A stretch of 32,000 bases of DNA from Pyrobaculum aerophilum str. IM2 (GCF_000007225.1 NC_003364.1:690001-722000); one strand, 5' to 3'; counted from the first letter of the stretch, positions 3,823 to 20,913 are shown. Notes: generated by a model from the letters alone, not told the origin. Translations and numbers: made by a program.

Positions 3823-3832
3823 AATATTTATA
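3821..3832 (+). promoter_or_regulatory. TATA-like box for rps5
   Basis: AAAATATTTATA is centred about 27 nt upstream of in-frame GTG 3854. It overlaps the stop codon (3820..3822) of the small repeat gene. Confidence 0.55.
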
Positions 3833-3853
3833 CGTCCATTGTTTGCCACGTAC

Positions 3854-4462
3854 GTGAGCGTCATCGATTTAAGTCTTTGGGAGCCTCGTACAGAGCTGGG
3901 GAGAATGGTGAAGGAGGGGAAGATCAGGACAATTGACGAGATATTTGCCAATAACTATATCATAAAAGAGCCTGAGATTGTAGATATCTTATTGCCTGGG
4001 CTGAAACAAGAGCTCCTTAATGTAAATCTAGTGCAAAGGCAGACTCACGCCGGCGAGCGCAACCAGTTTCAGGCAGTCGTCGCAGTGGGGAACGAGGATG
4101 GTTATGTTGGAGTCGGCATTGGAAAAGCCAGGCAAGTAAGACAGGCCATTGAAAAAGCCACTAGGGAGGCGAAGCTCAATCTCGTGCCAGTTAGACGCGG
4201 ATGCGGCTCGTGGAAGTGCTCATGCGATGAGCCTCACAGCGTGCCGTTTGTGGTGAGGGGGAAGTCCGGTAGCGTGGAGATCACCCTAATCCCAGCTCCG
4301 AAGGGCGTTGGGCTTGTGGCCGGCGATGTGGCCAAGGCGGTGCTTAGGCTGGCGGGGATAAAAGACGTGTGGACAAAGACCCGGGGAGACACGAGGACTA
4401 CTCTTAACTTCGCCATGGCAGTATACAACGCCCTGAGAAACACCTATTACTTTAAGATATGA
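3854..4462 (+). CDS. rps5: 30S ribosomal protein S5 (uS5)
   Basis: The translation has the typical uS5 core ([42 protein letters not shown] ... [17 protein letters not shown]). I moved the start from the track's ATG 3806 to GTG 3854 on TATA spacing. The 3806 extension overlaps the upstream gene. Confidence 0.9.
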
Positions 4463-4995
4463 TGGCGCAACAGGAAAAGGTTGTATACCCCCGCTACGCC
4501 GTAATTAGGCTGAGGGGCATACCCACAACTCCTAGGGATATCGCCGTAACGCTTGACTTGCTAAGACTCAGGAGGAAGTTCACAATGGTTGTGGTTAAGG
4601 GAAGTCCCAGCGTGATGGGGATGATACAGAAAGTAAATGACTGGGTTACTTGGGGCGAAATAGACGCCGACACTCTCGCCGAGGTTTTGCGGAAGCGGGG
4701 GAGGATCGTCGGCGACAAGCCGCTTACTCTTGAATACCTCCAGAAGTGGGGGTGGCACTCTTTTGAGGAGATTGCTCTGGCGTACGTGGCCGGGGAGATA
4801 GATTCGCTGTCATGCGGCAAAAAGATGAGAATAAAAGAGGGAGAGAGGCCGCCGTGCATTCCCTATTTAAAGCCGTTTTTCAGATTGCACCCGCCCCGCG
4901 GCGGCTTAAACAGCGTTAAGCTACACTTCTCAGTTGGCGGCGATTTGGGGTACAGAGGCCCCCTAATTAATGATTTAATCCGCCGAATGCTTTAA
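4459..4995 (+). CDS. rpl30: 50S ribosomal protein L30 (uL30)
   Basis: Archaeal L30 pattern: [53 protein letters not shown]. The ATGA start/stop overlap with rps5 indicates an operon. Confidence 0.85.
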
Positions 4996-5931
4996 ACATT
5001 TCTGTAGAGCCGCCTTAATTCTAGCCGCAGTCTCCTCGGGAGTAGTGTCCAGTGTAAATAGCGACGCTCCCAACTCGGCGCCGGCTGCATGTTTAAGCTT
5101 CCCGTCTGGCCTATACATGCCGTATATTTCAAAGTGTAAGTGGTAGTACTGCGTTGGCCGTGGAAGCGGCGCTTGGTGGAGCACCATTATATAGGGCATT
5201 GGTATCCCCGCCACTTGTTTTAAGGCGCATAGCGTTATTTTCAACGCCTCGGCTAAATCCGCCACCTCCTCGTCTGTTAACTCAGTGAGCAGGCTTCTGT
5301 GCCTCTTGGGGTATATGTGGACTTCGTGGGGCCATTTCGCATAAAACGGCACAAACGCCTTCCAATTGCGGTTTTGGAAGACAAGGCGTTTTTCCTCTTT
5401 TTCTACAATGCGGCAGTGGAGGCACGAGCCGTGTTTTACATACCACTCGTAGGAGGCTTGAAGCTCTGCGCGGACTCTTGGGGGAACCACCGGAAGTATG
5501 TATATTTGAGAGTGTGGGTGGGTGAGGGAGACTCCAATCTCCTTACCCTTGTTTCTAAAAAAGAGGAAGTATGCGGCGTTGCCCTCTTTCTCGGCTTTTC
5601 TCTGAGCCTCAGCCACCGCCGTCAAAATCTTTTTTATTTGGCCTAGGGGCAAGTCGCTGAGGTCGTCAACATCGTGTTGAGGGGTTTCCACCACTACTAG
5701 CGAGGAGCCGCGCGCGGGGATTACCTCATATAAATCTTCGGCTGTCGGCTCTGGGGGGTTTTCCGTAACCACGGGGTATCTATTTGGGAGTATTAGCACG
5801 TCCCACCCGCGGCCGGTCTCGGGGGCGCCGGGGCAGAAGGGGCATGCGCCCTCTGGTTGCCAGGGGCGTTTAAGCCTGTGGGGCGAGACTAAGATATACT
5901 CCCCCGTGAAGGGGTCTTTCCTAATCTCCAT
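4975..5931 (-). CDS. galT: Galactose-1-phosphate uridylyltransferase (HIT superfamily)
   Basis: CPFCPG zinc motif, SPHRLKRPW, and the active-site signature HPHSQIY (the HxHxQ of GalT). It overlaps the galK stop by 11 nt. Confidence 0.85.
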
Positions 5932-7042
5932 ATTTAAGCCCTTCGTCTACTTCAACGGCCCACCACTTCACGGCGCTTGAGCGCCTTCCTATTTTCTCGG
6001 CGGTTTCTCTATTGGGAGCCAAGGCGATTACTACGCCTCCAAGACCTGCGCCTGAGAGCTTAGCCCCATATGCGCCGGCGTTTACAGCCTCTTCTACTAG
6101 GCGATCTAACTCCGGCAACGACACGTCGTACAGCTCGGATAGGAGTCTGTGCTGTAGCAACATCTCGGCGCCTACTTTTCTCAAAATCTCCTCTGTCGGC
6201 AAGTCTCTGCGTTTTAAATATGCAAGCGCCCTTTCGGTGGATCTCTGCATTTCTAAAGTGAAGAGTACTCTTTCCCTCAAGGGGCTTGGCAATTTTTCCA
6301 CTGCATTGGGCTTGTCGTATAACACGCCCCAGGGGAAGTCCCAATACCCCTCGCTGTAAATGCCCAGCTCTGCCTTTAACATCTCCACGGCTTGTTGAAG
6401 TTCCGCCTGCCGTTTTGAGTGTACCTCAGCGGTGCTGTGCCGAACGCCGCTGTCTAACACGACAAAAACTCCTCCCGGCATTTCCAACGCCTCTACTCTC
6501 ACCGGGGGCTTAGGGTGTATCACGGCTACTTTCCCAAAGGCGGAGCCGTATTGGTCAAGCCTCCCGCACGGCACGCCTAAGATCTCCCTTTCAGCCACAT
6601 AGGCCAGCTCGGCCACAGTGGCTCTGTCAGCCTCGCGATTAGCGAGCCTCAACGCGGCTGCTATTAAACTTACTAACAACGCGGCGCTACTGGCCATCCC
6701 AGCCCCTATGGGTATGTCGGAGCGGACCACTGACTTAAAGCCCCTGAGGTAAACGCCGTGTTTCCACAGCGCCAGGACTGCCGCCTTTACGTAATCACAG
6801 AAGGTCCTCCCGGCGATTTGCGGGTCTTGGAAAATGCACTTCTCTCCTGTGTTTAACGACTCTATTTCAAAGACCTTGGACGCCTCCATTTCCACCCGCG
6901 TCCTCATGTTCACAGCCACAGAGACCACGGGCAGGCCTTTATAGTCCTGGTGGGTGTTTAAAAAGTCCAGCCGGCCCGGGGCAGAGGCCTTTACCAAAGC
7001 CTCCACACTAATACGGCCGCTATTGCAAACATTAAAACCCAC
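5921..7042 (-). CDS. galK: Galactokinase-like GHMP kinase
   Basis: GHMP motif PIGAGMASSAALLVSL, an N-terminal APGRLDFLNTHQDY resembling the galactokinase signature, and C-terminal KLSGAGLGG. The alternative start GTG 7006 would cut the overlap with the upstream gene from 52 to 16 nt. Confidence 0.8.
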   Translation of the reverse strand: MGFNVCNSGRISVEALVKASAPGRLDFLNTHQDYKGLPVVSVAVNMRTRVEMEASKVFEIESLNTGEKCIFQDPQIAGRTFCDYVKAAVLALWKHGVYLRGFKSVVRSDIPIGAGMASSAALLVSLIAAALRLANREADRATVAELAYVAEREILGVPCGRLDQYGSAFGKVAVIHPKPPVRVEALEMPGGVFVVLDSGVRHSTAEVHSKRQAELQQAVEMLKAELGIYSEGYWDFPWGVLYDKPNAVEKLPSPLRERVLFTLEMQRSTERALAYLKRRDLPTEEILRKVGAEMLLQHRLLSELYDVSLPELDRLVEEAVNAGAYGAKLSGAGLGGVVIALAPNRETAEKIGRRSSAVKWWAVEVDEGLKYGD

Positions 7043-7587
7043 ATGACTGGATTTGACCTAATCACCTTGTTGCCGTCTAGTGGGGGCAAGGGCAGTAGGT
7101 TAAATAACGCAAGCCACGCGTTTATATAGGCGAAGAAATGCCAGAAGTAAGATTGCGTGGCTGTCAATAATGCCAGTCCCAAGATGGCGAAGGCTATATT
7201 GGCGAGAGGCCCAGCCGCCGCTATGAAAAACATGTCGCGTTTCTCATCTCCCTGCCTATACAACCTATACGGCGACACTACCACGGACCCAGGCGCGGCG
7301 AATACGAAGCCGAAGAGTAGAGGGAAGATTATCGCCAGAGGAAGTAAGTAATAGTCTGCTTTATACATGGCGAAGTACCCAAGCCTCTTCGCCACTTCTC
7401 TATGCGCCAATTCGTGGCCAATAAAGGCAAAGAGGAGTACAAACGCTACATAGGGCATTAACGACAGAACTCTAGACCAATTCAACCCGCGGGCCATGTC
7501 GCCGGAGAGAGCTATTGAAAATCCCAGAGTTAATACTAACAAAGATATCGCCATGTCAATAAGCTCTTGTCTCCTCTCCTCATACAC
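6991..7587 (-). CDS. M50 (site-2 protease type) membrane metalloprotease
   Basis: HELAHR (HExxH) lies in a hydrophobic context together with NLLPLPPLDGNK (the NxxPxxxLDG motif). There are several hydrophobic helices. The start is a GTG with a TATA box 7605..7616. Confidence 0.7.
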   Translation of the reverse strand: MYEERRQELIDMAISLLVLTLGFSIALSGDMARGLNWSRVLSLMPYVAFVLLFAFIGHELAHREVAKRLGYFAMYKADYYLLPLAIIFPLLFGFVFAAPGSVVVSPYRLYRQGDEKRDMFFIAAAGPLANIAFAILGLALLTATQSYFWHFFAYINAWLALFNLLPLPPLDGNKVIRSNPVMWVLMFAIAAVLVWRLW

Positions 7588-7604
7588 GTTTCTCTCGAAT
7601 TCCA

Positions 7605-7616
7605 GATTTATAAATC
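7605..7616 (-). promoter_or_regulatory. TATA-like box for the protease-galK-galT cluster
   Basis: The A/T box (+ strand GATTTATAAATC) is centred about 24-26 nt upstream of GTG 7587. Confidence 0.5.
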
Positions 7617-7720
7617 ATTGCAACAGTAAATGTCGCCGCTCGCGAGCTTGCACAGCGGAAGTAACTCCAAATGCTATTGCAACTTATAGGGCCTCTGGCC
7701 ATTTCGCCTTTCAGAGCCGC

Positions 7721-7951
7721 CTATATCATCCTTGTCAGAATCTTAATTGCCCTGTCAACATCGCGCCGGGAGATGAGGTAGACGCCAGGCTTGTGTCTAA
7801 CCGCAACGCCCCGCTCAACAAGCGCGTTTAATATCTTCCTCACCTCGGCGTTGCAACTGCGATCTACCCCGCAGAGATCTACTATTCTCACAGCCACTAC
7901 TGTTCCACGTTCTTTCTTCTTGAAGTGAAGGTAATATATAAGCGCAGACAT
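7721..7951 (-). CDS. Small putative winged-helix DNA-binding protein (76 aa from ATG 7951; the track ORF starts at GTG 7963)
   Basis: VRIVDLCGVDRSCNAEVRKILNALVERGVAVRHKPGVYLI reads like helix-turn-helix plus wing. No family was recognised. Confidence 0.4.
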   Translation of the reverse strand: MSALIYYLHFKKKERGTVVAVRIVDLCGVDRSCNAEVRKILNALVERGVAVRHKPGVYLISRRDVDRAIKILTRMI

Positions 7952-8046
7952 TTGCTTGAACACGTTATTAATAAGTCAGTTAAAAGCAACTGCTGTGTCG
8001 GCTCCGCAGACGGTAAGAACTCTATATATACCCGTCGTTTAGAGCC

Positions 8047-9759
8047 ATGGATTTGGTAAAGAGGGTACTCTCAGTGAGGGCGGCCACAACGCCGAGGAGG
8101 GGGCCGGGAGGCGTTTTGTACTACCTCAGCGACGTGACTGGGCATATGCTTTTGTGGAAATTCGACGGCGGTAAACACGACGTTGTCTTGCCTTGGGACG
8201 ACAGAATTGGCGACTACAGAGTTTCAAAAGATGGGGCGCTGGCCTTTGTTTCAGATAAAGACGGCGATGAGAAGTGGCGGTTATATTTGGCGGACAATGA
8301 GGTTTACGAAATTTCTGCCGAGGGGGTGAACAACCTCGGCGCTTGGTCGCCAGACGGCTTAAAACTAGCCTTTACGTCAACTAGAGATGGCCAATCTGAT
8401 TTCAATGTATATGTTTATGACAGGTCTTTAAGAAAGGCGGAGAAAATCGCCGAAATCCCCGGCATAAACGTCGTTGAGGAGTGGAGCGAGGCGGGCGTGT
8501 TTATTACTCATTACGAGACTAATTTAGACAGCACTATATATTTGTATAAAGACGGCCAGTTGAGGGAATTAACAAAACACAGCGGCGAGGCCTTAAACCA
8601 TTCTCCCCGATACGTGGGCAACGGCAAGCTCTTATTCCTCACAAACGCCGACTGGGAATACGTGGGGATAGCGCAAATGGACTTATCCACTGGCAACTGG
8701 AAATATATTGTACAGCTCGACAGAGACATAGAGCATTTCGACGTCTGGGGGAGCTATTTAATATTTGCCGTGAATGAGGAGGGAAGGTCTGGGCTTTACC
8801 AAATGCACATCCCCTCAGGCCTCACGTATAAACTCGCCTCGCCTAGCGGCGTCGTCACGCATTTAGATTTTAAAGACGGCGTTCTCGCCTTTTCTCTGTC
8901 AAGCATAAACAAGGGGCATGAGGTCTACATATATCAACAAGGCGCCGTGAGGCAAATAACCCACTCCCCCAAATTCGGAGCGCCGATTCATAATATCCCG
9001 GAGCCGGCGTCGGTGTGGTACCCCAGTTTCGACGGCAGAAAAATTCAAGCAAATCTCTACTATCCCCCCGGCGAGGCAAAGGGAGTAGTAGTGTACCTAC
9101 ACGGAGGGCCTGAAAGCCAAGACCGCCCGGAGTTCAAGCCCCTAATCGCGGCGCTTTTAATAGCGGGATATGCCGTGGCAGCCCCCAACTACAGAGGCAG
9201 CACCGGCTTCGGCAAAACCTTCACTCACCTAGACGACTTAGAGAGGCGGTGGGACGCGATAAAAGACGTCGTGGCGTTTGGAAAATGGCTCGAATCCCAG
9301 GGAATAGCTAAGAAAAAGCCCTGCGTCTTAGGGGGATCTTACGGGGGATACTTAACGCTTATGGCCCTGGCAACAGCCCCCGAGATGTGGAGCTGCGGCG
9401 TTGAGATGGTGGGAATTTTCAACTTAGTGACATTCCTCGAGAGAACCGCCCCTTGGAGGAGGAGGTACAGAGAGGCCGAATACGGCTCATTAGATAAGCA
9501 CAGAGAGCTATTGCAGCAGCTCAGCCCAGCTACACACGTGGAGAAAATCCAAGCGCCGTTGCTGGTTGTACACGGCGTCAACGACATAAGAGTGCCGCTG
9601 TACGAAGCCGAACAGTTAGTACAAAGGCTGAGAGAACTGGGCAGAGACGTTACGTTTATAGTACTCCCCGACGAGGGGCACACTATCACTAAAATTCACA
9701 ATAGAGTGCGCGTCTACAGCGAGGTAATTCAGTTTATTGAAAAACAGTTCAGCGTTTAA
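8047..9759 (+). CDS. S9-family serine peptidase (acylaminoacyl-peptidase / prolyl oligopeptidase type)
   Basis: The N-terminal part has beta-propeller-like repeats (SPDGLKLAF, SKDGALAFVSDKDG). The C-terminal part is an alpha/beta hydrolase with nucleophile elbow GGSYGGYL, HGVNDIRVP and PDEGH. A TATA box lies at 8011..8020. Confidence 0.85.
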   Translation: MDLVKRVLSVRAATTPRRGPGGVLYYLSDVTGHMLLWKFDGGKHDVVLPWDDRIGDYRVSKDGALAFVSDKDGDEKWRLYLADNEVYEISAEGVNNLGAWSPDGLKLAFTSTRDGQSDFNVYVYDRSLRKAEKIAEIPGINVVEEWSEAGVFITHYETNLDSTIYLYKDGQLRELTKHSGEALNHSPRYVGNGKLLFLTNADWEYVGIAQMDLSTGNWKYIVQLDRDIEHFDVWGSYLIFAVNEEGRSGLYQMHIPSGLTYKLASPSGVVTHLDFKDGVLAFSLSSINKGHEVYIYQQGAVRQITHSPKFGAPIHNIPEPASVWYPSFDGRKIQANLYYPPGEAKGVVVYLHGGPESQDRPEFKPLIAALLIAGYAVAAPNYRGSTGFGKTFTHLDDLERRWDAIKDVVAFGKWLESQGIAKKKPCVLGGSYGGYLTLMALATAPEMWSCGVEMVGIFNLVTFLERTAPWRRRYREAEYGSLDKHRELLQQLSPATHVEKIQAPLLVVHGVNDIRVPLYEAEQLVQRLRELGRDVTFIVLPDEGHTITKIHNRVRVYSEVIQFIEKQFSV

Positions 9760-9762
9760 GCT

Positions 9763-9789
9763 GTGGAAGGGGGAGGGGAGGATTAGGCG
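9763..9789 (+). repeat. Purine-rich junction motif, instance B (GTGGAAGGGGGAGGGGAGGATTAGGCG)
   Basis: 23 of 27 positions match 2876..2901. The next ~30 nt (GATAAAAAACCTTTTTTCAATTTTCAG) still resemble the first codons of the 2902 gene, with ATG changed to ATA. It abuts the 3' end of the large-gene fragment. Confidence 0.55.
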
Positions 9790-9817
9790 ATAAAAAACCT
9801 TTTTTCAATTTTCAGTT

Positions 9818-10740
9818 TTAGCTCTGTTGATTGTCATTTTGTACCTCTTGCTTTTGCGGTTTACCCTCCCTCCACTGATCTATGGCATCTTTCAGCGCCT
9901 TAAACCGGCGCAGGGCGTCTAGCTGGTCGGCGTTAAGCCTCACTTGGCCCCTCTTGGCCTCCCCGGTCAGTGTCCTCAGTATGGCGACTTCTACGTCGTC
10001 TTTGACCGTCGGCCGTGCTATTTCGTAATAGTACGTGACTGTGGTTTGATCTTTCTTTTCCCGCTTCTCCGCCCAGTACCACTCCATTTTGAACTGTCTC
10101 CTCTCGCCGCTGGGTAATTCGTATTCTACGACAACGCGCAGGCGGCAGTCCTCGCCGGCGCACTGGCCTACCGGCTGGCCGTTTTCCACAAACTCGTACT
10201 TCAGATCTACAACGCGGGCAATTAAGTTGCCCTTATCGTCGCGCACTGCTAATGGTAATTCCACCGCCCCCTCCTCCTTTGCAGGCGTAAGTACTTCAAT
10301 TAACTTGTGTGCCGCGTCATCGCCGTATCTGCGCCTAAGCACGTCCTCCAGCTCCCTGATGAACTGTTCCGCCTCCAAGTCGCCATTCAGCGCCATGCGC
10401 TGAATTTCACGGAGGCCCTCTGAGGTGATGTAGATTTCGTATTGTTTGCCACTCCTTACAGTGAAGTCCCTGCCCTCCTCAATCCCTCCCCCCTTCAGGG
10501 CGTTTACAACGGCGTCTTTGTGATCCTTTTTGACGCGGATTATGCGCCATTTGCTGTAGACAGCGTAGTGTTCGCCCTCCTTCAGCCCGCTATGCGCCAA
10601 AGCCTCAACGGTCTTGGAGTAGGCATATTTTGTAACACGGATTTCATAACTGTCGTGCTCCCTTATCGTGAAGTGTGCACTTTCCTTCAGACCCCTGGCC
10701 TTTAAGGCGTCCACAATAGCGTTTTTAGAAACTTCCTTGA
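9818..10740 (-). pseudogene. C-terminal fragment of the large repeat-family gene (copy 3)
   Basis: The track ORF 9818..10714 (298 aa) aligns along its length with the last ~310 aa of 21986..24982 (ALKARGLKE..HFT, REIQRMALNGDLEAE.FIRELEDVL, QCAGEDCRLRV, EIARPTVKDDVEVA, ADQLDALRRFK). Nucleotide homology continues to about 10740, then stops. No N-terminal ~1050 codons are present. Confidence 0.85.
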
Positions 10741-10968
10741 GGCCTCTGCCGTAAGCGTCTCGTAATGCCTCTGTGCGGCCTCCCTTGTCCTCTCCGCCCT
10801 CTCCGCCGATAGCTCCGCCAGCCTCTCGGCGTATTTCAAGTGCTACCGGGCCATGCGTATTTCCTCGTAAGCCGCCCTGGCCCTAACCGCGTGCGCCACC
10901 GCCGTGAGGACGTCCCTCTCCATACCCACGGCCTTTTTCGCCCTCTGTATCAACTCCTCATACGCCTT

Positions 10969-11499
10969 TTACAGCGCCACCGCCTTGCCGGCTAGGGCCA
11001 TCAAGTGGGCGGCGGCTCTGTGCTGAATGCCCTCTCTGGAGTTGTAATATCTGCGGATACCTTCGGTGAGGCCTTGAAATGTCCACTCCGCCACGTATTT
11101 CGCTATCTTGTCTGGATACGACTTCTCGGGGAGGAAGAAGAAGACGTCTCTGGCCTTAAAGGCCACTGGCATCCCCACTGTCAGCGGGACGTCTGCTAGC
11201 GTTGAAATGTCTCTAAAGGCCTCGCCGTAGAGGTCAAACAGTAAGTAGCGCCCAAAGGCCTCTCTCGCCAGCCTCTCGCCCAGCCTATTTACTACGTAGA
11301 CGCCCATTGGCGCTTGCAGAAGCGCCTTCCACCCCCTCCAGCCCAAGTAAGGCAGTAATGACTCATACAGCGGGTTGTGGTAGAGCTCTCTGCCGTAGGT
11401 TTCAAACACGCCGCGACCGCCCCTCCTGACGTGTAGGGGATTTCTACCCCCCCTACCCACGTCTAGTAGCTTTCCGCACTGGGGGTGGTAATACTCCAT
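10969..11499 (-). CDS. Hypothetical protein, 176 aa, possibly the head of a decayed longer gene
   Basis: ORF in the track. I found no recognisable motif and no TATA-like box upstream. The same frame continues as helical-looking sequence across two stops down to about 10746 (see findings). Confidence 0.4.
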   Translation of the reverse strand: MEYYHPQCGKLLDVGRGGRNPLHVRRGGRGVFETYGRELYHNPLYESLLPYLGWRGWKALLQAPMGVYVVNRLGERLAREAFGRYLLFDLYGEAFRDISTLADVPLTVGMPVAFKARDVFFFLPEKSYPDKIAKYVAEWTFQGLTEGIRRYYNSREGIQHRAAAHLMALAGKAVAL

Positions 11500-12030
11500 A
11501 ATAGCTCATCCGGCAAAGGTAAGCGCCGTCCTCCTGGGCTTCACATGTTTAAGCACTGTAGGAAATGCTACTTTCGCACCCGTTATAGAAATTTAAAAGA
11601 CGGCACAGAGGACGAGGAAGCTGAGGAGGGGTTGTTGTTCACGCTACCCTGGGTCCCCGCGAGTTTTAACGCAACAATCAGCTACGCCCTATGTGGCCGG
11701 CAACAGCCCTATATAAAGGCAAGTTTAGCCACTGGATTCCTTCCTTTTCTTAACAACGTCCCAGATCCCGGCGATATTACGACTTAAGCGTCGTTATAAA
11801 AAGCGACATTCCAACCCGACTAAAGAGAAATCTTTAACCCCTTGATAGATTCTTCAACTTTTACTATTTAGCGCCGGCAATAGTTTTCTAATTAAAACAT
11901 TACAATATTGATGATATATATATAATAAGGAGATCGTAAAGCGGTCATAAGCGTACTAGAGTTTCCAACTCTAAGACAGTCTGGTATCGCCTCCTCCCTA
12001 CCTTAAATCATCGGCAGATTGTAAACCGCG

Positions 12031-12618
12031 TCACGCAATAGGCTTTGCTGTGTGGAAAAACGTTATGTAGAGAATCCGCGCTGCAACGTATAGAGGCAGA
12101 AACACGGCTAGTAAAACCAGGAGTTTTAACCACACGTCATCTATAAATAGAGGCGCGACAGGCGGCACGTAGAGCGGAGCCGTGACGCCGGCGAAATAAC
12201 TCGCCATGACTGGCCCTAGGCTTAACATTATAATAATACCGGTGCCGAGACCGCCTGCAAAGGAAAAACTTGGCTTCCACAAGCCCAGCACTACCCCGAT
12301 GGCACAAAATATCAGACTTGAAGACGCCAAGCCAATAAAATAGCCTGGCGAGAGCGCCTTGAGAACTTCACTCCCGTAGATAACAAAGTAAAGAATTAGC
12401 ATAGGGACAGTGGCCGTCAAAATTGTAAGCGCCGTCGCCGATGCTATAAGCAATATGAAATATGTGGAAAACCCCACGCCAGTGGCTCTGAAAAACTCAA
12501 TTCTCCTCGTAAAGTTGTCGTTGGCAATGGTGTAAAGAGGCGTGATGCCGAACGAGATGAGAGTCATAATGGCCAAAACCCCCATGGCGCTTTCCAAATC
12601 AAACTTCCCAAAATACAC
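12031..12618 (-). CDS. Polytopic membrane protein, probable ABC-2-type permease partner
   Basis: 195 aa that are almost entirely hydrophobic (about 5-6 helices). It lies 90 nt downstream of the ABC ATPase on the same strand. Confidence 0.6.
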   Translation of the reverse strand: MYFGKFDLESAMGVLAIMTLISFGITPLYTIANDNFTRRIEFFRATGVGFSTYFILLIASATALTILTATVPMLILYFVIYGSEVLKALSPGYFIGLASSSLIFCAIGVVLGLWKPSFSFAGGLGTGIIIMLSLGPVMASYFAGVTAPLYVPPVAPLFIDDVWLKLLVLLAVFLPLYVAARILYITFFHTAKPIA

Positions 12619-12707
12619 TATAAAAACTCCAATTAACGGCCACGTAATAAGTGAATATCACTTATATTTAAGTATAGGAATTATATAAAATTTCAATATG
12701 TCTATCA

Positions 12708-13394
12708 TTATGACGCAATAAGAAACTCCTCTAGCCTACTTATTTCATTCTCCTCAACAATTTTCACTAATTTATTTTTTAATATTATCGCCTTGTCGAG
12801 AATGTTCTTAGCCTCGTATAAATTATGAGTAGACAACACAACCGCGGCGCCCGAGACTTTAAGCTCCCTCAGTCTACTAATCACAGCCATTCTAGTCTCG
12901 TAGTCTAAATACTCAAAAGGCTCGTCCAACACATAACACCTTTTCTCTAAGCCAAATAAGATGGGCAACACAATAGACTTCCTTTTAAGGCCTTCTGAAA
13001 GCTTAAACGCTGGCTTATCCGCATGACTCATTAAGTCAAATTTAGTAACCAACTCCCGCGCCACAGTCCTCGACTTGTCTTTAGAAAGCCCGTGAAGTCT
13101 TAAGATCAAAACCATGTTTTCATAAAGCGTTAAAAACTCGTCTGGATGAGCTTCTTGTGGAATATAACCAACGTCATAAGGCGAGAAATTAGTAACCACC
13201 CTACCCTTCGTCGGCTCAATAAGTCTCAACATTAAACGAATTGCAGTAGTTTTGCCCGCCCCATTAGGCCCATTAAGGCCCACAATGCCGCCATCTATCT
13301 CAAACGAGACGTTGTCAAGAGCCACTACAAACTCATTTCCAAATCTAGACTTACGGTAGTATTTACTCACTTCCTCAAATCTAACAATAACCAT
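12708..13394 (-). CDS. ABC transporter ATP-binding protein (exporter type)
   Basis: Walker A GPNGAGKT, signature LSEGLKRK, Walker B CYVLDEP, H-loop STHN. I moved the start to ATG 13394 (MVIVRFEEV). The A/T box 13413..13428 is centred about 26 nt upstream of it. Confidence 0.85.
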   Translation of the reverse strand: MVIVRFEEVSKYYRKSRFGNEFVVALDNVSFEIDGGIVGLNGPNGAGKTTAIRLMLRLIEPTKGRVVTNFSPYDVGYIPQEAHPDEFLTLYENMVLILRLHGLSKDKSRTVARELVTKFDLMSHADKPAFKLSEGLKRKSIVLPILFGLEKRCYVLDEPFEYLDYETRMAVISRLRELKVSGAAVVLSTHNLYEAKNILDKAIILKNKLVKIVEENEISRLEEFLIAS

Positions 13395-13395
13395 A

Positions 13396-13901
13396 TTATG
13401 GAAATGGATGTGGCTTTTTATTAATTTTGTCGTATGATAATGCATTATTTCTCTGTCGTATTATAACAGGGTATTCGTATATTCTCCTAGGACCTAACAT
13501 TGGCACAAATGGATCTGAAAAAGGTATAAGTTTTAATACCTTTGCGCCATAAGTATGTATACTACTTTTAATTGTTACAGTATTCGCGTCAAATACTATT
13601 GGTGTATACCCTTTGTCGTGAAGCTGGTTGATCAGTTCTCCCTTGCTTACACCCCAATTATCAATTCGAGCTATATCAACTGAGTACTATTTATTATGTT
13701 AAGCAACTTATTAATAGCGGCGTTACTCATCGAAGATACTACATGTTGTAGCGATTTTATCTCGTTTAACTCAACACTTTCTGCAGCAGCATATATATAG
13801 TGCGCAGTAGCTGCCGATTGTAGGGCCTCCCTTAAGGCTTCCCTGATTGCTTGTTTTAAATTTAACGCCGCTGCAGAACCTAGGCCATGTCCCACTGGCA
13901 A
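13396..13901 (-). pseudogene. Possible frameshifted or decayed gene
   Basis: The track ORF 13671..13901 ends at TAG. A protein-like reading (VDIARIDNWGVSKGELINQLHDKGYTPIVFDANTVTIKSS...) then continues in another frame to 13396 without a start codon. The first frame is also open upstream of its TTG start, to about 13990. Confidence 0.3.
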
Positions 13902-14052
13902 ATCCTTTCTGCGTAAAATTACTAATGCTATAGGTATGCTAATATCTGTTGGTAAGATGTAGCATATTATATCTAGTTTTTTATATCAAAGCCTATATAG
14001 TTTAAATATTCATAGAGCAATACATCGCAGTTGCGAATGTAAATAGCCTTAG

Positions 14053-14341
14053 ATGAGGTATACCATCGCCGAATACGGCGAGAAATACGCCGAACCGCTA
14101 ATCAGCGAATACGCCCTGAGGAAGGCCTTTTGGTGGGAGGGAGAGTGGCGCGGTAAGCCGATGTCGTGTTTCGTGACGGAGAAAAAGGCGATATGCAAGA
14201 TAGGCGATAAGATGGCCGCGTTTTATGTATTTGACACGCCGCAGGGAGTGTACCTAAGGCCAGAAATCAAGTTAATAGACGACTGGATTAAAGTGGCGCA
14301 TAGAGGAGATGACGGCAGTTAAGGCGACATTTAAAGTGGCG
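14053..14341 (+). pseudogene. C-terminal fragment of the small repeat-family gene (copy 3), plus a short 5'-end remnant of a following copy
   Basis: The 89-aa ORF matches the last ~85 aa of 2902..3822 almost residue for residue. Homology starts near 14060. After the stop (14320..14322), GTTAAGGCG...AAAGTGGCG resembles the start of 19547..20389. Confidence 0.85.
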
Positions 14342-14400
14342 TATGAATTCTGCGGGGCAACGTGCCGCGTGTAAAGACACCAGCTCTTAGCGCTTAAAGT

Positions 14401-14410
14401 CTTTATAAAT
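14401..14410 (+). promoter_or_regulatory. TATA-like box for speE
   Basis: CTTTATAAAT is centred about 25 nt upstream of ATG 14430. Confidence 0.5.
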
Positions 14411-14429
14411 GGGCGTAAAGAGACTGGTT

Positions 14430-15305
14430 ATGTCAAAGGTGCCGGGTCCAATAGTGCTAATGGAGCCGCTTAGCGGGAAGACGTCGCTGATAATCAAGAT
14501 AAACGCAATACACGTTTCGAAGCGTTCTAAATATCAAGGGATTTTAATAGTAGATACTGATGATTACGGCAGGACCTTGGTATTAGACGACTATATTCAA
14601 TCCTCTTATTACGACGAGATTTACTATCACGAATCGTTAGTGCACCCCGCAGTGACCACTCACCCGCGTCCAAGCGACGTCTTAATACTGGGAGGGGGCG
14701 AGGGGGCTACTCTCCGCGAGGTGCTCAAACACAACACTGTGAAAAGGGCTGTTATGGTGGATATTGACGGCGATGTGGTGGAGCTGTCAAAAAAATACCT
14801 CCCGCAAATGCATCAAGGCGCATTTGACGACCCCCGTAGCGAAGTGCGTATTGAAGACGGTTTTGTCTACGTGGAAAACGCCTTGAAACGCGGCGAGAAA
14901 TTCGACGTGGTGATAATGGACCTCACAGATCCCTACAGTTCAGACATTGCAAAACAGCTTTACACGCCGGAGTTCTTTGGCAAAGTAAAGAGGTTGCTAC
15001 GAGAAGACGGAATTGTAGTGACGCAGGCAGGCAATAGTTTCTACTTCCCAGAGGCATATGACTATGTCCTACAGGGGGTGAAGGGCAATTTCCCAATAAT
15101 TGCTGAGTACAGCGTGTGGATCCCCTCCTTCGGATACGCGGTGAATTTCGTACTGGGCTCGCTCAAACACGACCCCCATTCGCTAAGCGCCGAGGAAGTG
15201 GACAAGAGGCTGTCTGAGAGGGGAGTGAGAGCGGAGTTTTACAGCGGCAAGACGCACATAGCATTAATGAACATGCCCGTCATTAAAAAGATACTCCGTG
15301 TCTGA
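14430..15305 (+). CDS. speE: Spermidine synthase-family aminopropyltransferase
   Basis: LILGGGEGATLREVLKH, VDIDGDVVELSKKYLP and DVVIMDLTDP are standard family motifs. I moved the start from the track's 14409 to 14430 on TATA spacing. Confidence 0.85.
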   Translation: MSKVPGPIVLMEPLSGKTSLIIKINAIHVSKRSKYQGILIVDTDDYGRTLVLDDYIQSSYYDEIYYHESLVHPAVTTHPRPSDVLILGGGEGATLREVLKHNTVKRAVMVDIDGDVVELSKKYLPQMHQGAFDDPRSEVRIEDGFVYVENALKRGEKFDVVIMDLTDPYSSDIAKQLYTPEFFGKVKRLLREDGIVVTQAGNSFYFPEAYDYVLQGVKGNFPIIAEYSVWIPSFGYAVNFVLGSLKHDPHSLSAEEVDKRLSERGVRAEFYSGKTHIALMNMPVIKKILRV

Positions 15306-16509
15306 GGTAGAGGCAATTAGGGGCACGTACAGCAATTTGCTGAGAGAGAAGAGGATAGTACTACTTGTCTCCTCGGGCATTTCGCTTTATAAATCTATAG
15401 ATACGGCGCGGTTATTAATCAGACACGGCGCCGAAGTTTATGCCTTCATGACTCCAAAAGCGGCGCGGTTAGTCTCGTCGGATCTCTTCTGGTGGGCCAC
15501 GGGGAGGAGGCCCGTGGTAAGGCTGACGGGCAAGGCGGAGCACATAGAGATATGCGCCAAAGCCGACGTAGTTTTAGTCGCCCCTGCCACCGCAAATACT
15601 CTTGTGAAGCTGTCGCTGGGAATTGCCGACAACGCAGCCCTCACCTGCGCCTTGGCCGCTGCGAACGCCAAGCTGGTAGTGGCGCCTGCGATGAACTTAG
15701 CCATGTGGAACACAGAGCCTGTGAGAAACGCCTTAGAGAGGCTTGAAAAACGCGGCTACATAGTGCCGCCCATTATTGAAGAGGGGAAGGCGAAATACCC
15801 CCCGCCTGAGGAGATAGCGGAGTACGTAATCGACGCCACAGCGCCTAGGGACTACGCGGGAGTGCGGGCGTTGGTCACCGCCGGACCAACCCACGAGCAC
15901 ATTGACGACGTTAAGTATATCACAACGCCCAGTAGCGGGCTCACCGGGTATTACTTTGCCAGAGAGGCGGCGGCGAGGGGGGCAAGGGTTACGCTAGTGA
16001 CGGGGCCGACTAATTTAAAGCCGCCGCCCAACGTGGAGGTAGTAAAGGTGACCTCTGTGCTTGAGATGTACAAGGCGGTAGTGGAAAGGGCCTCGGAGAA
16101 CGACCTCTTTATTTTCTCCGCAGCCCCTCTGGACTTTTACGTGGAGGGCAGAATCGCCGGCAAACTTGACAGCTTCCTATCTCAATACCAGCTGACGCTT
16201 AGGCAAGCCCCCAAGGCGGCGCAAGAAGTAAAGAGGCTAAACCCCGGGGCTGTTGTCATCGGCTTTAAGGCAGAATACGGCGTCTCAGAGGAGGAATTAA
16301 TAGAAAGGGCAAAGAGGAGGATGGAAAGCGGAGAGTGGGATTTCGCCTTGGCACACGACGTGTCTAAAATGGGGTTCGGAACTTTAAAAGACCAATACCT
16401 CCTAATCCACAGGGACGGAAAGACTACGCGGCTCGGGCCCGCGCATAAAAGAGAGCTGGCGCGCTTAGTGCTTACCTTGGCGCGCGGCCAGTTGAAGAGT
16501 TCTGATTAG
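15298..16509 (+). CDS. coaBC: Bifunctional phosphopantothenoylcysteine decarboxylase / synthetase
   Basis: The N-terminal flavoprotein half has SSGISLYKS and APAMNLAMW. The C-terminal CoaB half has VTAGPTHEHIDDVKYITTPSSG. The GTG start overlaps the speE stop. Confidence 0.85.
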   Translation: MSEVEAIRGTYSNLLREKRIVLLVSSGISLYKSIDTARLLIRHGAEVYAFMTPKAARLVSSDLFWWATGRRPVVRLTGKAEHIEICAKADVVLVAPATANTLVKLSLGIADNAALTCALAAANAKLVVAPAMNLAMWNTEPVRNALERLEKRGYIVPPIIEEGKAKYPPPEEIAEYVIDATAPRDYAGVRALVTAGPTHEHIDDVKYITTPSSGLTGYYFAREAAARGARVTLVTGPTNLKPPPNVEVVKVTSVLEMYKAVVERASENDLFIFSAAPLDFYVEGRIAGKLDSFLSQYQLTLRQAPKAAQEVKRLNPGAVVIGFKAEYGVSEEELIERAKRRMESGEWDFALAHDVSKMGFGTLKDQYLLIHRDGKTTRLGPAHKRELARLVLTLARGQLKSSD

Positions 16510-17163
16510 TTGGAAATGCTTCTCCTCGTCTAGCTCAATAGAGAGAATAAGCGCCCTCAACACCGGGTCGCCAATTCTGTACAAATCGGCGATACTCTCC
16601 CTCATAGAGCCCTCCTCAGCCGCCAACACTTCTAACTCCTCCTCGTTTAAATCAATTCCCTCAGCCCTCAACCTCCCCCCTAGATAATCTAGGATCATTG
16701 TCAAAATCTCCGCGTGGCGCAAGCTGTCAGCGGCAATTTGCATAAACAAAGCCCTGATCAAGGGGTTCTTCACTTTGTAAGAATAAGTCATTGCCCTAGA
16801 GGCCGTCTCTTGTTCCAGCCGAATCCTAGACCGAATAAGCTCTTCTAAATCCGCATGCTGGCCCCTCTGCGACATTATATTAGAAATCACCTTCGCCAGC
16901 TCAGTCAAGTCAACAGGCCCTCTTATCCCTTTCCTCGCCGCGTCGACTAAAATATCGGCGTGGTTTTTAATGAGGCCCATAACTCTTTCGTCCTTCGCGA
17001 GCTCTTGCACAAGCTCTCCGCCCCTCTTCCCCGAGATGTACATAGAGACCGCGGCAGCGGTTAGCCCCAGCAACTTGGCAGTCTCGTTGACGCTCAGCCC
17101 CCTCTCCACCAGCTCCCTCGCCAGCAACGCCCTAACCGCGGAAAGCGCCCTCTCAAAAGACAC
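16465..17163 (-). CDS. Putative HTH transcriptional regulator with a C-terminal helical (ferritin-like?) domain
   Basis: The N-terminus LSVNETAKLLGLTAAAVSMYISGKRG is a classic helix-turn-helix. The rest is helical with LRHAEIL and EEKHFQL. The start is a GTG, with the A/T box 17180..17192 about 23 nt upstream. Confidence 0.5.
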   Translation of the reverse strand: MSFERALSAVRALLARELVERGLSVNETAKLLGLTAAAVSMYISGKRGGELVQELAKDERVMGLIKNHADILVDAARKGIRGPVDLTELAKVISNIMSQRGQHADLEELIRSRIRLEQETASRAMTYSYKVKNPLIRALFMQIAADSLRHAEILTMILDYLGGRLRAEGIDLNEEELEVLAAEEGSMRESIADLYRIGDPVLRALILSIELDEEKHFQLIRTLQLAARQGKH

Positions 17164-17325
17164 AAAAAATCAGTACACAGAATATTAAAAAGTGACGTAG
17201 CTTAAAAACCACAATACGCAGACGCCGGCAATAACAATAGCCACCCCAGCGAGTCTGGCGATGGCGGTTCTCAGCAGCCTTGTTATCGCAATGTTTTATA
17301 TTCATATAACCACGGGGTCTCCCGG

Positions 17326-17512
17326 CGCCCCGCTGGGTTATTCATTTTCTGGGCACTGTCTGTGGCGTGGACACGGCGCCTTCTGTCCGGGCAATCACTC
17401 TCATTCCCTTTCTTAACGTTACGCCGCCGCCTTGAGGACGGGGCATCCTCCTATTGGCATTGGGAGTTGACAGGAAGGGCTGTTATGCGCGTCCGGCCTA
17501 GACGCATTTTTT
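17326..17512 (+). ncRNA. Candidate structured small RNA (unclassified)
   Basis: A GC-rich block with no credible ORF. Upstream A/T box 17293..17310. Local hairpins at 17321..17337, 17369..17388, 17434..17450 and 17485..17507, followed by T6 at 17507..17512. Strand and ends are guesses. Confidence 0.25.
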
Positions 17513-17551
17513 CGCCAAGGCGTGCGGCCTCTGCGCGGCTGTGACGGTAGT

Positions 17552-17564
17552 AAGTATATATATT
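17552..17564 (+). promoter_or_regulatory. TATA-like box for the 17583 ORF-malQ pair
   Basis: AAGTATATATATT is centred about 26 nt upstream of ATG 17583. Confidence 0.5.
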
Positions 17565-17582
17565 GCGGTTTGTTAAGTGCCT

Positions 17583-18014
17583 ATGTACAGAGTTTACGAC
17601 CGGAGAGTGCAACTTCCGATTAAAATCAGCAAGGGGGCTGATGAGCAGGCGAGGCTTAGAAAGCTGGAGAGGTGGCCTAGAGAGGCCGGCACCACGGTGG
17701 TTCTCGACGAGTCAGGCTCTAATTTTAACAAGCTAGTTCAGATCTACGCCGCCGACTACGGCTTAGAGCTCGGCGAGAAGAAGTGGGACGTGAAGACTGA
17801 GGGCGAGTCCATAAAGGCTAGGCTCGAAATCCCCATGTTAAAAAGCGGTGAGGTAAAAGGCCGCGCGGTAATGGAGGCGGAAATCCCCAAGGCCCCCTCG
17901 GGGGAGGAGGGCAATAACGCGGTTTATACTGCCGACGTCCACTATTATATTGAAATTGACGAGCAAGTCCTGGCGGAGTCCACCACTAGCGGCGTCGTGG
18001 AGTTCACTCTGTAA
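17583..18014 (+). CDS. Hypothetical protein (143 aa), translationally coupled to malQ
   Basis: ORF in the track (starts there at GTG 17577). ATG 17583 fits the TATA spacing. The stop and the malQ start share TAATG at 18012..18016. No motif recognised. Confidence 0.55.
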   Translation: MYRVYDRRVQLPIKISKGADEQARLRKLERWPREAGTTVVLDESGSNFNKLVQIYAADYGLELGEKKWDVKTEGESIKARLEIPMLKSGEVKGRAVMEAEIPKAPSGEEGNNAVYTADVHYYIEIDEQVLAESTTSGVVEFTL

Positions 18015-19420
18015 TGTTAAGAGGCGCCGGCGTATTATTGCACATAACCTCGCTGCCAGGGGGCTGTTTTGTCGGCGACTTGGGGCCGGAGGCGTATAAA
18101 TTCGCAGACAGCTTGGCATACGCAGAGCAGACCTACTGGCAGACACTGCCCATAAACCACACAGTCCCCGAGTACGAGAACTCCCCCTACAGCGCCGTGT
18201 CTAGCTACGCCGGAGACCCCGTTTTAATAAGCCTTGAGTTAATGAAGCGCGACGGCTTAATAGACAGCGTTCCCCAGTGCCCGCCCGCGGAGAGAGCCGA
18301 TTACATAAAGGCCTGGGAGGTAAAGAGAAAGGCGCTGGAAAAGGCTCTGAAGAGGGCCGGGAGGCTGAGCGACTACCGCCATTTTAAAGACGTCACGCCT
18401 TGGCTTGACGACTACGCCTATTACATGGCCATGAGGGAGAGGTTCGGGCCGTGGCCTGTATGGCCTAAGGAGGAGCCGCCTCCCGCGTCACTGGAATTAT
18501 ATAAATTCGCCCAGTTCGTCTTCTGGACGCAGTGGGAGAGGTTTAAAGAATATGTAAACAGCCTGGGCATTTTCCTCATCGGCGACCTCCCCTTTTACCC
18601 AAGTCTCGATAGCGTAGATGTGTGGAGGAACAAAAAGTATTTTAAAGTGGGAGAAGACGGGAGGCCGCTGTACGTGGCTGGGGTACCCCCAGATTATTTC
18701 TCGGCCACTGGACAGCTGTGGGGAAACCCCGTTTACAACTGGGAGGCGCTGGAAAGAGACGGCTTTAAGTGGTGGGTTAATAGGCTTAAACACGCAGTGA
18801 CAGTTTTTGACTACGTCAGGCTGGACCACTTCAGGGGATACGTGGCGTATTGGGAAGTGCCGGGGGGCGAGACGACGGCAGTTAGGGGGAGGTGGGCGCC
18901 GTCCCCCGGGAGGAGGCTGTTTGAAGCAGCCGCCGCGGCTGTAGACCTCGGCAGATTAATCGCCGAGGACTTAGGCTATATAACCCCGGAGGTGGAGGCG
19001 TTGCGAGAAGAATTGGGGCTGCCGGGAATGCGGGTTTTACAATTCGCCTGGGACGGAAACCCAGCCAATCCCCACAAGCCGCACAACCACGTGAAAAACG
19101 CCGTGGTGTACACGGGCACTCACGACAATAATACAGCAGTCGGCTGGTATAAAGAAGAGGCCACTGCCCGGGCCAGGCGGGAGTTTAAAAAGTACTCAAA
19201 TTGCGCCGGAGAAGTACACTGGTGTTTTATAAAACTGGCACACATGTCCGTGGCAAACGTGGCAATAGTCCCCGTGCAAGACCTACTGGGACTGGGTTCA
19301 GAGGCCAGGATGAATAGGCCAGGCACTGTGGGGGGCAACTGGAAGTGGAGGCTTGGGGCCCAGCCGGAGCCGCGCGTTTGGAAGAGGCTTAGAGACGTCA
19401 CGAGGACTTATGGCAGATAA
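18014..19420 (+). CDS. malQ: 4-alpha-glucanotransferase (amylomaltase, GH77)
   Basis: GH77 blocks are present: GDLPFY, RLDHFRGY, IAEDLG, YTGTHDN. Confidence 0.9.
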   Translation: MLRGAGVLLHITSLPGGCFVGDLGPEAYKFADSLAYAEQTYWQTLPINHTVPEYENSPYSAVSSYAGDPVLISLELMKRDGLIDSVPQCPPAERADYIKAWEVKRKALEKALKRAGRLSDYRHFKDVTPWLDDYAYYMAMRERFGPWPVWPKEEPPPASLELYKFAQFVFWTQWERFKEYVNSLGIFLIGDLPFYPSLDSVDVWRNKKYFKVGEDGRPLYVAGVPPDYFSATGQLWGNPVYNWEALERDGFKWWVNRLKHAVTVFDYVRLDHFRGYVAYWEVPGGETTAVRGRWAPSPGRRLFEAAAAAVDLGRLIAEDLGYITPEVEALREELGLPGMRVLQFAWDGNPANPHKPHNHVKNAVVYTGTHDNNTAVGWYKEEATARARREFKKYSNCAGEVHWCFIKLAHMSVANVAIVPVQDLLGLGSEARMNRPGTVGGNWKWRLGAQPEPRVWKRLRDVTRTYGR

Positions 19421-19483
19421 TTTAAAACACTGGTTTTGTTAGGACTGGCCCCCCTATATGCCCTCTCCCCCAGATACTCCGAC

Positions 19484-19551
19484 GACACGCCGAATTTTCT
19501 GGGTAGGGAAAAGGCCTCTGGGAGGGGGACTTTTACACACGCCGCCTTAAC
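19484..19551 (-). pseudogene. 5'-end remnant of another small repeat-family gene, placed head to tail after 19547..20389
   Basis: The minus strand reads VKAACVKVPLPEAFSLPRKFGVS, against MTVKAVKAACVKVALPEAFSLPRKFGVS of the neighbouring gene. It lacks an ATG, and homology stops near 19484. Confidence 0.7.
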
Positions 19552-20389
19552 TGTCGCCGCACCTGTGAACCACTTTAATCCACTCCTGGTAGAGGGGGCT
19601 CTCAGGCTTAATGTACACGCCGTCTGTTGTTGTCCTCACTAAAAACTTCCATTTGGCGTTCCCCCACTTGCATACCGCCTCCCTCTCCGTCACAAAACAC
19701 GACGCGGGCGCCCCCATCCACTCCCCGTCCCACCAAAAGGCCCTCCTCAGCGAGAAGTCAGAGGCGTATAGTGACGCCCTCCCTCCCAGCTCTCTCTTGA
19801 TAAAGTTGTATAGCTGGCACATGGCAAAATACTCCTCAAGCCTCTTTACAATCCCCTCTATCAAGCCCATCGGCTCGCGGCCGAAACACTGCCTATGCCA
19901 CTGGGCCACCGCTCTGTACAACTCCCTCCTCAACTCCCTCCACGCCTTCTGGCTCTTAAGGGCCTCTCTGGGCGGGTTTCTGAGAAAGTCTATGACGCCT
20001 CTAACACATCCCTCGGCCGTCGGCCTCTTGCACAGCCACTTGTCCACCTCAACGCCGTTTACATAAACAGCGTCTTGCGCCAGCTCAACTTCGTATTTCG
20101 CCGCCAGCTCGTAAAGCGCGTCTGCAAAATACTGCGGCAGTCTGTAGCTTCCCTCTTCCCTCTCCTCTCTCCGCTTGTAAACTGCCAGATAGCGTTTAGC
20201 GATTGCGTCGTAGGGTAGCACGTAGCGGAAATACAGGCCTTTAACGCCCCCCTCTGCCACAACGGCGTCAACGCCGTAGAAGGCCCCTTGCGTGAAACAC
20301 CCCCAAGAGACGCCGAATTTGCGCGGTAAGGAAAAGGCCTCTGGTAGCGCCACTTTTACACACGCCGCCTTAACCGCCTTAACTGTCAT
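19547..20389 (-). CDS. Small repeat-family protein, second full-length copy (diverged), 280 aa
   Basis: ORF in the track. It aligns with 2902..3822 over [61 protein letters not shown] and RRAFWW.GEW.G...SCFVTE.EAVCK. Confidence 0.8.
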   Translation of the reverse strand: MTVKAVKAACVKVALPEAFSLPRKFGVSWGCFTQGAFYGVDAVVAEGGVKGLYFRYVLPYDAIAKRYLAVYKRREEREEGSYRLPQYFADALYELAAKYEVELAQDAVYVNGVEVDKWLCKRPTAEGCVRGVIDFLRNPPREALKSQKAWRELRRELYRAVAQWHRQCFGREPMGLIEGIVKRLEEYFAMCQLYNFIKRELGGRASLYASDFSLRRAFWWDGEWMGAPASCFVTEREAVCKWGNAKWKFLVRTTTDGVYIKPESPLYQEWIKVVHRCGDS

Positions 20390-20858: not shown

Positions 20859-20890
20859 TTAAAATATTGCCTTAAATCTCGCTTAAGTTG

Positions 20891-20900: not shown

Positions 20901-20913
20901 GGCGCGGAAATAC

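Follow-up and report, generated by a model that had tools for sequence, protein, structure and literature searches.

A probable PaREP2-derived mosaic remnant in the interval from the S9 peptidase gene to speE in Pyrobaculum aerophilum

In a 32,000-nucleotide (nt) stretch of the Pyrobaculum aerophilum str. IM2 genome (NC_003364.1:690001-722000; hereafter the window, to whose whole length all coordinates refer), with a GC content of ~52%, Pfam searches identify three copies of a two-gene repeat, PaREP2, composed of a large gene, PaREP2b (2b; PaRep2b, PF07775), and a small gene, PaREP2a (2a; PaRep2a, PF07903). The family was reportedly first named in the genome paper of this strain. Its third copy in the window, unit 3, keeps only the outer ends of the two genes around a different core, and raises the question of how such a structure came about: the initial annotation, which placed it at 9763..14341, considered either that foreign DNA had replaced the centre of a unit by recombination or that unit ends behave as termini able to carry different cargo. 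We propose that unit 3 is probably a dead mosaic PaREP2 remnant, resulting from repeated illegitimate and ectopic recombination and not from cargo-carrying transposition.

The limits of the structure are given by an empty-site allele, present in a conspecific 62-kb metagenome contig (L068) whose left and right flanks are 99.4% and 98.1% identical to the window, respectively. The alignment runs at 99.46% identity up to position 9746 and homology is back at 14402, with 46–49 nt between the S9 peptidase gene and speE in L068. The strain-variable block thus spans 9747..14401 (4655 nt), wider on both sides than first annotated, and stands in place of a 49-nt spacer, so that 49 nt of target were lost. 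The peptidase gene directly adjoins speE in four other Pyrobaculum genomes (L007, L008, L010 and L011), and the block is present at the same site in about 25 further conspecific contigs, the near-identical comparison contigs being derived from metagenome-assembled genomes (MAGs) labelled Pyrobaculum sp. or P. aerophilum at NCBI. The sampled strains carry the whole block or none of it, with no contig holding a partial block. Since the allele is empty in L068 and in the four other species, everything between peptidase and speE is one indel, and the block is a single insertion, variable within the species, into an ancestral interval of 50 nt or less; its two end fragments therefore belong to one structure, as initially proposed. 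Raised divergence from L068 is found beside the right edge of the block only, where 22 single nucleotide polymorphisms (SNPs) occur in the first 300 nt (about 7%), decaying over about 1 kb of speE, which fits an exchange of whole haplotypes by homologous recombination in the flanks. SNP density relative to L068 rises again just before 18014, beyond which the L068 sequence differs where the window has the gene of a GH77 enzyme, and the two raised stretches (14402..15400 and 17732..18014) look like recombination tract edges.

Both ends of the block derive from PaREP2 genes. On the left, 9818..10728 (minus strand) is an open frame formed by the last 298 codons of a 2b gene, 76% nt-identical to 24056..24961, the 3' end of the intact copy; the match to PF07775 extends over 9818..10714 (E = 2.4e-144, 482 bits, profile positions 228–512 of 512), the fragment retaining just the C-terminal 56% of this domain. 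On the right, 14053..14322 (plus strand) holds the last 85 codons of a 2a gene and matches PF07903 (E = 2.3e-46, 157 bits, profile positions 40–122 of 122), the truncation falling inside the domain. This fragment is 87–89% nt-identical to 3562..3809 and 20359..20633; its homology begins at 14065, corresponding to residues 220–305 of the product of the 306-codon gene, and its ATG arose at the junction. As in unit 1, the fragments face outwards, 2b being read from the minus strand and 2a from the plus strand, and the GC content at third codon positions (GC3) of all PaREP2 pieces is 0.62–0.73. Neither gene keeps its 5' half, the central region that units share is gone, and the fragments stand 3.3 kb apart, separated by other sequence. 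The initial annotation was accurate in all these points: it had recognized the last ~300 codons of the large gene on the minus strand and the last ~85 of the small gene on the plus strand, the outward-facing arrangement of an intact unit, and the loss of the promoter-proximal parts of both genes.

The sequence next to the 2b fragment had been taken for an unrelated, stop-interrupted hypothetical gene. It is instead an internal piece of a giant PaREP2b-family gene (10729..11421, minus strand), with in-frame stops at 10969..10971 and 10843..10845, the first of which is polymorphic (Tyr in strain contig L001). A first, word-indexed search with the 176-amino acid (aa) open reading frame (ORF) of this region found two relatives only; when the longer of these, P0002, served as query in an exhaustive HMMER search, P0123, P0124 (2464 aa or more), P0125 (1490 aa) and P0127 were recovered. 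By tblastn, 11421..10717 (minus strand) is 67% identical in amino acids to residues 115–352 of P0123, and it also matches residues 1692–1855 of P0124, as well as P0125. The link to PaREP2b comes from a MAG contig (L049/L079; MAG GCA_026414425, contig JAOAJA010000039), which is 99.3% identical to the window from 19773 down to exactly 10729, and in which that same DNA runs on past 10729 as a 2436-aa ORF (8938..16248 in L079). Along this ORF, sequence resembling P0123 and P0124 is followed by a complete PaREP2b (PF07775 at residues 1917–2432, 850 bits), which makes up the C-terminal ~1340 aa of the ORF and whose N-terminal region is 80% identical to unit 2. PaREP2b is thus the C-terminal module of giant proteins, a link of which we found no mention in the paREP2 literature examined. 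Relative to the partial giant ORF, the 2b genes of unit 1 (window 2199..2867) and unit 2 (window 20863..21711) have their starts at residues 1155 and 1095, respectively, with stops upstream, and look like independently truncated derivatives of a giant gene.

The 10728/10729 junction between the giant-gene piece and the 2b fragment is sharp and out of frame, with a microhomology of 1–2 nt at most, and for this reason we rejected the possibility that the two form one continuous variant gene. We also rejected the window allele as a 6.3-kb internal deletion of the L049/L079 allele, since the 2b tail of the latter is only 76% identical and abuts an ETF gene, not the peptidase gene. The junction could have originated by an internal deletion of a resident giant gene, followed by recombination in the MAG lineage, or by recombination between two copies, or it could reflect a chimeric assembly of the MAG contig.

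Further to the right, a segment of unassigned origin and host-like GC content (11422..11790, 0.515) supplies the spurious start of the 176-aa ORF; no match to it was found in the fetched loci or in the remainder of the window, and its 100-aa plus-strand ORF has no match in Pfam. The AT-rich spacer described here by the initial annotation is consequently limited to 11791..12030. Likewise, the 3.3-kb core, regarded as entirely unrelated DNA, includes about 0.7 kb of PaREP2b-family sequence, and it is 11791..14052 that is foreign in character.

This AT-rich segment (11791..14052, minus strand) seems to be the remnant of an operon with the order YcaO', ATPase and permease. The compositional steps expected at first are real, its GC content being 0.403 against 0.52 for the window, and its GC3 0.36–0.51 against 0.57–0.68 in host genes. 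The best preserved gene is that of an intact, 228-aa ATP-binding cassette (ABC) ATPase of the DrrA/ABC-2 type (12708..13394, minus strand; PF00005, E = 3.6e-16; best NCBIfam model TIGR01188 drrA, below its cut-off), with Walker A (GPNGAGKT), signature-like (LSEGLKRK) and Walker B (LDEPFEYLD) motifs. Its nearest relatives (P0004-P0008) are 57–64% identical and come from metagenomes only, and the contigs with the nearest ATPase/permease pairs have 32–37% GC, one belonging to an uncultured Thermoproteota MAG. Foreign GC3 and codon usage, together with relatives in low-GC archaeal contigs, indicate that the AT-rich part is of separate origin, as had been suspected, and we interpret it as DNA gained horizontally long ago from an archaeal lineage of low GC content and now in decay. 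No YcaO gene stands next to the nearest ATPase-permease pairs in the contexts fetched; a few kb from the closest pair, L030 (2318..2866) has a weak match to a Pyrobaculum-spherical-virus ORF131-like domain. A search for the exact ATPase retrieved 12–13 contigs, with the speE locus in every match listed; no second copy of the cargo was found, the next relative of the ATPase being 64% identical, and the ATPase has no match in IMG/VR.

The neighbours of the ATPase gene are degraded. What had been annotated as the second member of an exporter pair is an ABC-2-type permease pseudogene (12034..12714, minus strand), a full-length homologue of 230-aa permeases (41–45% identity over 230 aa to those of L028/L030 by tblastn), in which a stop (12658..12660) replaces at codon 19 the Trp of its relatives (KYK-stop-YSL versus KHKWHML), and the 195-aa ORF at 12031..12618 is the remainder. 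The region is invariant in the strain alignment, and the nonsense codon costs the first helix in all strains. The decayed ORF of the initial annotation is indeed decayed, and can be identified as the middle part of a YcaO domain (13671..14024, minus strand), decayed downstream and 5'-truncated, the N-terminal half having been lost at the 2a junction. The 116-aa allele of L001, which lacks the frameshift, matches PF02624 with 31.9 bits (cut-off 25.7; profile positions 173–253 of 325); the 76-aa ORF of the window scores 18.2 bits on this profile. Compared with L001 and L005, the window has lost 1 nt at 13976, a frameshift that is polymorphic among strains. The match to TIGR03604 is below its cut-off. 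No precursor peptide or partner genes (E1-like, dehydrogenase, TfuA) were recognized among the block ORFs of at least 60 aa, shorter precursors not having been systematically searched.

The outermost ~50–70 nt of the block, on either side, are further scraps of PaREP2 units. The left one (9758..9808, plus strand) joins the 3' end of a gene for a 111-aa winged helix-turn-helix (wHTH)-like protein to the first ~8 codons of PaREP2a, with the ATG changed to ATA; its local alignment to another locus, L027, scores 50 (shuffle maximum, 34), and further matches to it lie at window 2872..2908 and in L035/L036, just upstream of 2a. The right one (14324..14378, plus strand; translation KATFKVAYEFCGATCRV followed by a stop) comes from the middle of the same wHTH-like gene, scores 51 against L027 (shuffle maximum, 35) and also matches L036, L040 and L046 upstream of 2a. 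The two scraps stand in circularly permuted order, and 128 nt of the gene are absent between them. L027 (1..5397) is itself a long-form unit, in which the start of a giant gene (P0002) is divergent from ten small genes that end at the start of 2a; one of them encodes a protein with a TFIIB-like zinc ribbon, and the last, immediately upstream of 2a, is the 111-aa wHTH-like gene. Over its first 88 nt, L027 shares 97.7% identity with window 2848..2935.

The block ends do not behave as element termini. Inverted or direct repeats were not detected at the block ends (end-to-end alignment score of 7–8, shuffle mean of 7.7), and these ends do not coincide with the ends of the 2a and 2b genes. A 9-nt near-repeat at the edges (AGCGYTTAA) was considered as a target duplication and fails against shuffles and the empty-site boundaries; the 49-nt spacer of L068 was likewise rejected as a wHTH remnant (score of 18, shuffle mean of 19.6). 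Pfam contains no recombinase match for the block ORFs of 298, 176, 195, 245, 89 and 100 aa, and Pfam, NCBIfam and PHROG yielded no transposase, integrase or recombinase among the block ORFs, the 2a and 2b genes of the window, the giant ORF and the inner genes of L027. The tails of different PaREP2 units are unrelated to each other. With neither terminal inverted repeats (TIRs) nor target-site duplications (TSDs), with ends off the gene ends, unrelated unit tails, and a cargo that is cut and dead, the suggestion that unit ends act as termini that carry cargo finds no support.

The block itself, and the family elsewhere, bear signs of exchange between copies. The differences among strains within the block are stops, one frameshift and a tract of ~200 nt in the 2a fragment (14074..14277, plus strand), where about 45 differences, mostly synonymous, split the aligned strains into two groups; the same strains are otherwise ~99.9% identical across 9000..15500. 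This tract is a gene conversion from an unsampled paralogue, both alleles being at most 89% identical to any sampled copy. In L045, the 3' parts of 2b and 2a are fused directly, without cargo. On a larger scale, the segment from rpS5 to the GH77 gene (3820..25080) is inverted in the window relative to the block of RNase HII, PadR and NAD-synthase genes: RNase HII adjoins rpS5 in three other species (L007, L010 and L011) and in the conspecific L062 and L068, and window positions 3820 and 25081 both fall on position 10132 of L068. Bracketed by units 1 and 2, which are in inverted orientation, this inversion is present in some members of the species only. Large indels associated with paREP2 and inversions bounded by paREP sequences have been described in P. 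oguniense (PMC3558965). Taken together, the conversion tract, the L045 fusion, the differing 2b truncations and the inversion indicate that the PaREP2 family recombines ectopically.

What the locus displays, then, is a set of pieces of defined composition inserted as a single indel, no element termini, ongoing decay and gene conversion, and a dead mosaic remnant is probably the explanation that accounts for it. Repeated illegitimate and ectopic (paralogue-to-paralogue) recombination would have built the block that now sits in the peptidase-speE spacer, leaving, from the left, the scrap of the wHTH-like gene and 2a start, the last 298 codons of 2b, the 0.7-kb giant-gene piece, 0.37 kb of unassigned sequence, the 2.26-kb AT-rich YcaO-ABC-2 piece, the last 85 codons of 2a and the second wHTH scrap. 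A PaREP2 unit whose large gene was long or giant may once have occupied or formed the block and later lost both 5' halves through deletions and the capture of foreign DNA, and the block haplotype may have spread or been lost among strains by homologous recombination in the flanks. Four points weigh against this explanation. The block ends lie both in the same wHTH-like gene, in permuted order, which random breakage would not predict; the strains offer no intermediate, so that the stepwise assembly is itself an inference, and it may have taken place elsewhere, before an en-bloc arrival; the giant gene of L079 continues from 10729 and yet ends beside an ETF gene, with a 2b tail only 76% identical; and the 298-codon 2b fragment and the ATPase are still open reading frames and may retain some residual function.

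The permuted ends are also what a circular intermediate predicts, and they belong to an alternative in which the PaREP2 gene ends or the outer wHTH scraps are functional termini of an integrative element with variable inner cargo, arriving en bloc, perhaps as a circle opened inside the wHTH-like gene, as in SSV-type integration, which partitions a gene. In agreement with this, the block is cleanly present or absent among strains of a single species, the long form in L027 has its ten small genes between giant gene and 2a, the position that the ABC segment takes here, and a further PaREP2 copy, which we call unit X, is cleanly inserted at the RNase HII/rpS5 junction in some strains only. Nevertheless, we consider it unlikely: 128 nt of the wHTH-like gene are absent between the scraps and 49 nt of target were lost, TIR and TSD are missing, the tail of unit X has no similarity to the wHTH-like gene or to the block tail, and no recombinase, transposase or integrase was found among the genes of the window units or of L027. 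Moreover, PaREP2a has no match in IMG/VR or PLSDB, nor has the 2b fragment in INPHARED, and the cargo is truncated exactly at the junctions and was not found elsewhere.

A broader form of this idea, which we judge distinctly improbable, is that PaREP2 units are the eroded outer ends of a much larger chromosomal element which, whole or in pieces, can move en bloc into intergenic spacers. Such an element would have, on its left, a gene for a giant protein (2,400 to over 4,000 aa) with PaRep2b at its end, on its right, PaREP2a after the wHTH-like gene, and between them a variable inner cassette, represented by the ten small genes in L027 and by the captured YcaO/ABC segment here. If true, this would be an unrecognized archaeal integrative element without known recombinase, possibly with a circle opened in the wHTH-like gene.

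It is very improbable that two independent events placed the 2b and 2a fragments around a pre-existing ABC island, the unit-like layout being a coincidence. Multiple events are certain, because the block contains at least seven segments of differing origin; however, the comparison of the orthologous locus from peptidase to speE, which the initial annotation had called for, shows it empty in four species and in L068, with an empty spacer of at most 50 nt in the relatives, in none of the genomes do the ABC genes occur at this site without the fragments, or the fragments without the ABC genes, and the orientation of the fragments is that of an intact unit. Both checks that the initial annotation had set against its own reading, for a GC profile without a step and for ABC genes at this locus without repeat fragments, turned out favourable to it.

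Hardly credible, finally, is a functional acquired island retained by selection, such as a maturase of the YcaO type for a ribosomally synthesized and post-translationally modified peptide (RiPP) with its exporter or immunity pump, which would fit the intact ATPase ORF with its motifs, the operon-like gene order and the more than 99% conservation of the segment among strains, but that identity reflects strain relatedness and not selection, the YcaO gene, which has a frameshift in the window, keeps only some quarter of its domain, the permease has lost its first helix in all strains, and no precursor or partner gene was identified among the ORFs of the size searched.

The block shares features with several known systems. 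It resembles the PaREP2 family in that both end fragments are unambiguous members (PF07775 and PF07903), divergent and outward-facing, and in that strain-specific indels and inversions accompany the family, as in P. oguniense (PMC3558965); unlike other members, this copy lacks the 5' halves and the shared central region, carries foreign DNA, and connects PaREP2 with giant proteins (at least 2,400 aa). As in composite transposons and integrative elements, repeat-family sequences flank unrelated genes and there is presence/absence polymorphism, and the permuted scraps of one gene at both block ends recall SSV-type integration, which splits a gene at the prophage borders. However, the block has no transposase, integrase, TIR, TSD or tRNA target, and shows instead a 49-nt target loss, a single copy of the cargo, and cargo genes that are truncated and dead. 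With recombination "scrapyards", degraded genomic islands in which pseudogene fragments build up at repeats, it has in common many sharp junctions between truncated genes of differing origin, mixed composition, ongoing decay and conversion with paralogues, although it still mimics the polarity of an intact unit and is confined to one intergenic site. Clusters that combine YcaO (TOMM/SagD-like) with ABC-2 (DrrA-like) exporters have the same gene order and the same PF02624 and PF00005 matches; unlike them, the block keeps a YcaO fragment only, and the closest ATPase/permease pairs of other archaea have no adjacent YcaO in the contexts fetched. The block is thus an ordinary mosaic remnant of a known repeat family, if one that is resolved unusually well.

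The two other copies in the window are also altered. Unit 1 (1..3819) has its 2b gene on the minus strand, running off the window and without the hydrophobic N-terminal segment, and its 2a gene at 2902..3822, preceded by the last 54 nt of a wHTH-like gene (2848..2901). In unit 2 (19476..25080), the 2b gene (20914..24982) is split into ORFs of 342 and 998 aa by a stop or frameshift at 21942..21986. With the split 2b of unit 2 and the shortened 2b of unit 1, all three copies in the window look damaged. The 2a copies of unit 2 are arranged head-to-tail, as a C-terminal part only (20379..20756), a full copy (19547..20389) and an N-terminal remnant (19476..19549), every stop overlapping the next start, and this pattern recurs in L035, L036, L039, L042, L043 and L045.

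Among 25 clusters of 2a homologues, those with an organism name are all from Pyrobaculum, with the exception of one Thermofilum MAG, in keeping with a family confined to Pyrobaculum and its close relatives. The AlphaFold model of PaREP2a has a pLDDT of 75 overall and of about 90 for residues 141–300; Foldseek retrieved no fold match in the PDB (best E = 0.036, TM 0.12), a PaREP2a profile has no match among PDB sequences, and PADLOC, PHROGs and NCBIfam contain no match.

The remaining features of the window are housekeeping genes (rpS5, rpL30, galT, galK, S9 peptidase, speE, dfp, GH77 enzyme and RNase HII), and a tRNA and Rfam scan of the window gave no match. In two unrelated places, a 17-nt overlap joins the end of 2a, including its stop, to the annotated start of the housekeeping gene that follows, rpS5 (3806..3822) and carA (L047, 956..972), and strains that lack the unit have an rpS5 call shorter by 16 codons; a PaREP2 unit may supply a spurious start and a TATA-like sequence to the gene downstream. 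Translation of speE probably begins with the ATG at 14430, giving MSKVPGP... like the orthologues, rather than at 14409 (region 14409..14432), and a TATA-like sequence, TTTATAAA, lies at about 14400..14408, on the block boundary.

In terms of annotation, the block should be described as PaREP2b, PaREP2a, YcaO and permease pseudogene fragments accompanied by one orphan ABC ATPase. For the study of how PaREP2 reshapes genomes, the locus offers natural controls, with filled and empty alleles, inverted and non-inverted contigs, and a conversion tract. The most useful by-product of the analysis is the connection between PaREP2b and giant proteins, by which the canonical PaREP2 units of ~5 kb would be differently truncated derivatives, a view that reframes a family without assigned function since its naming.

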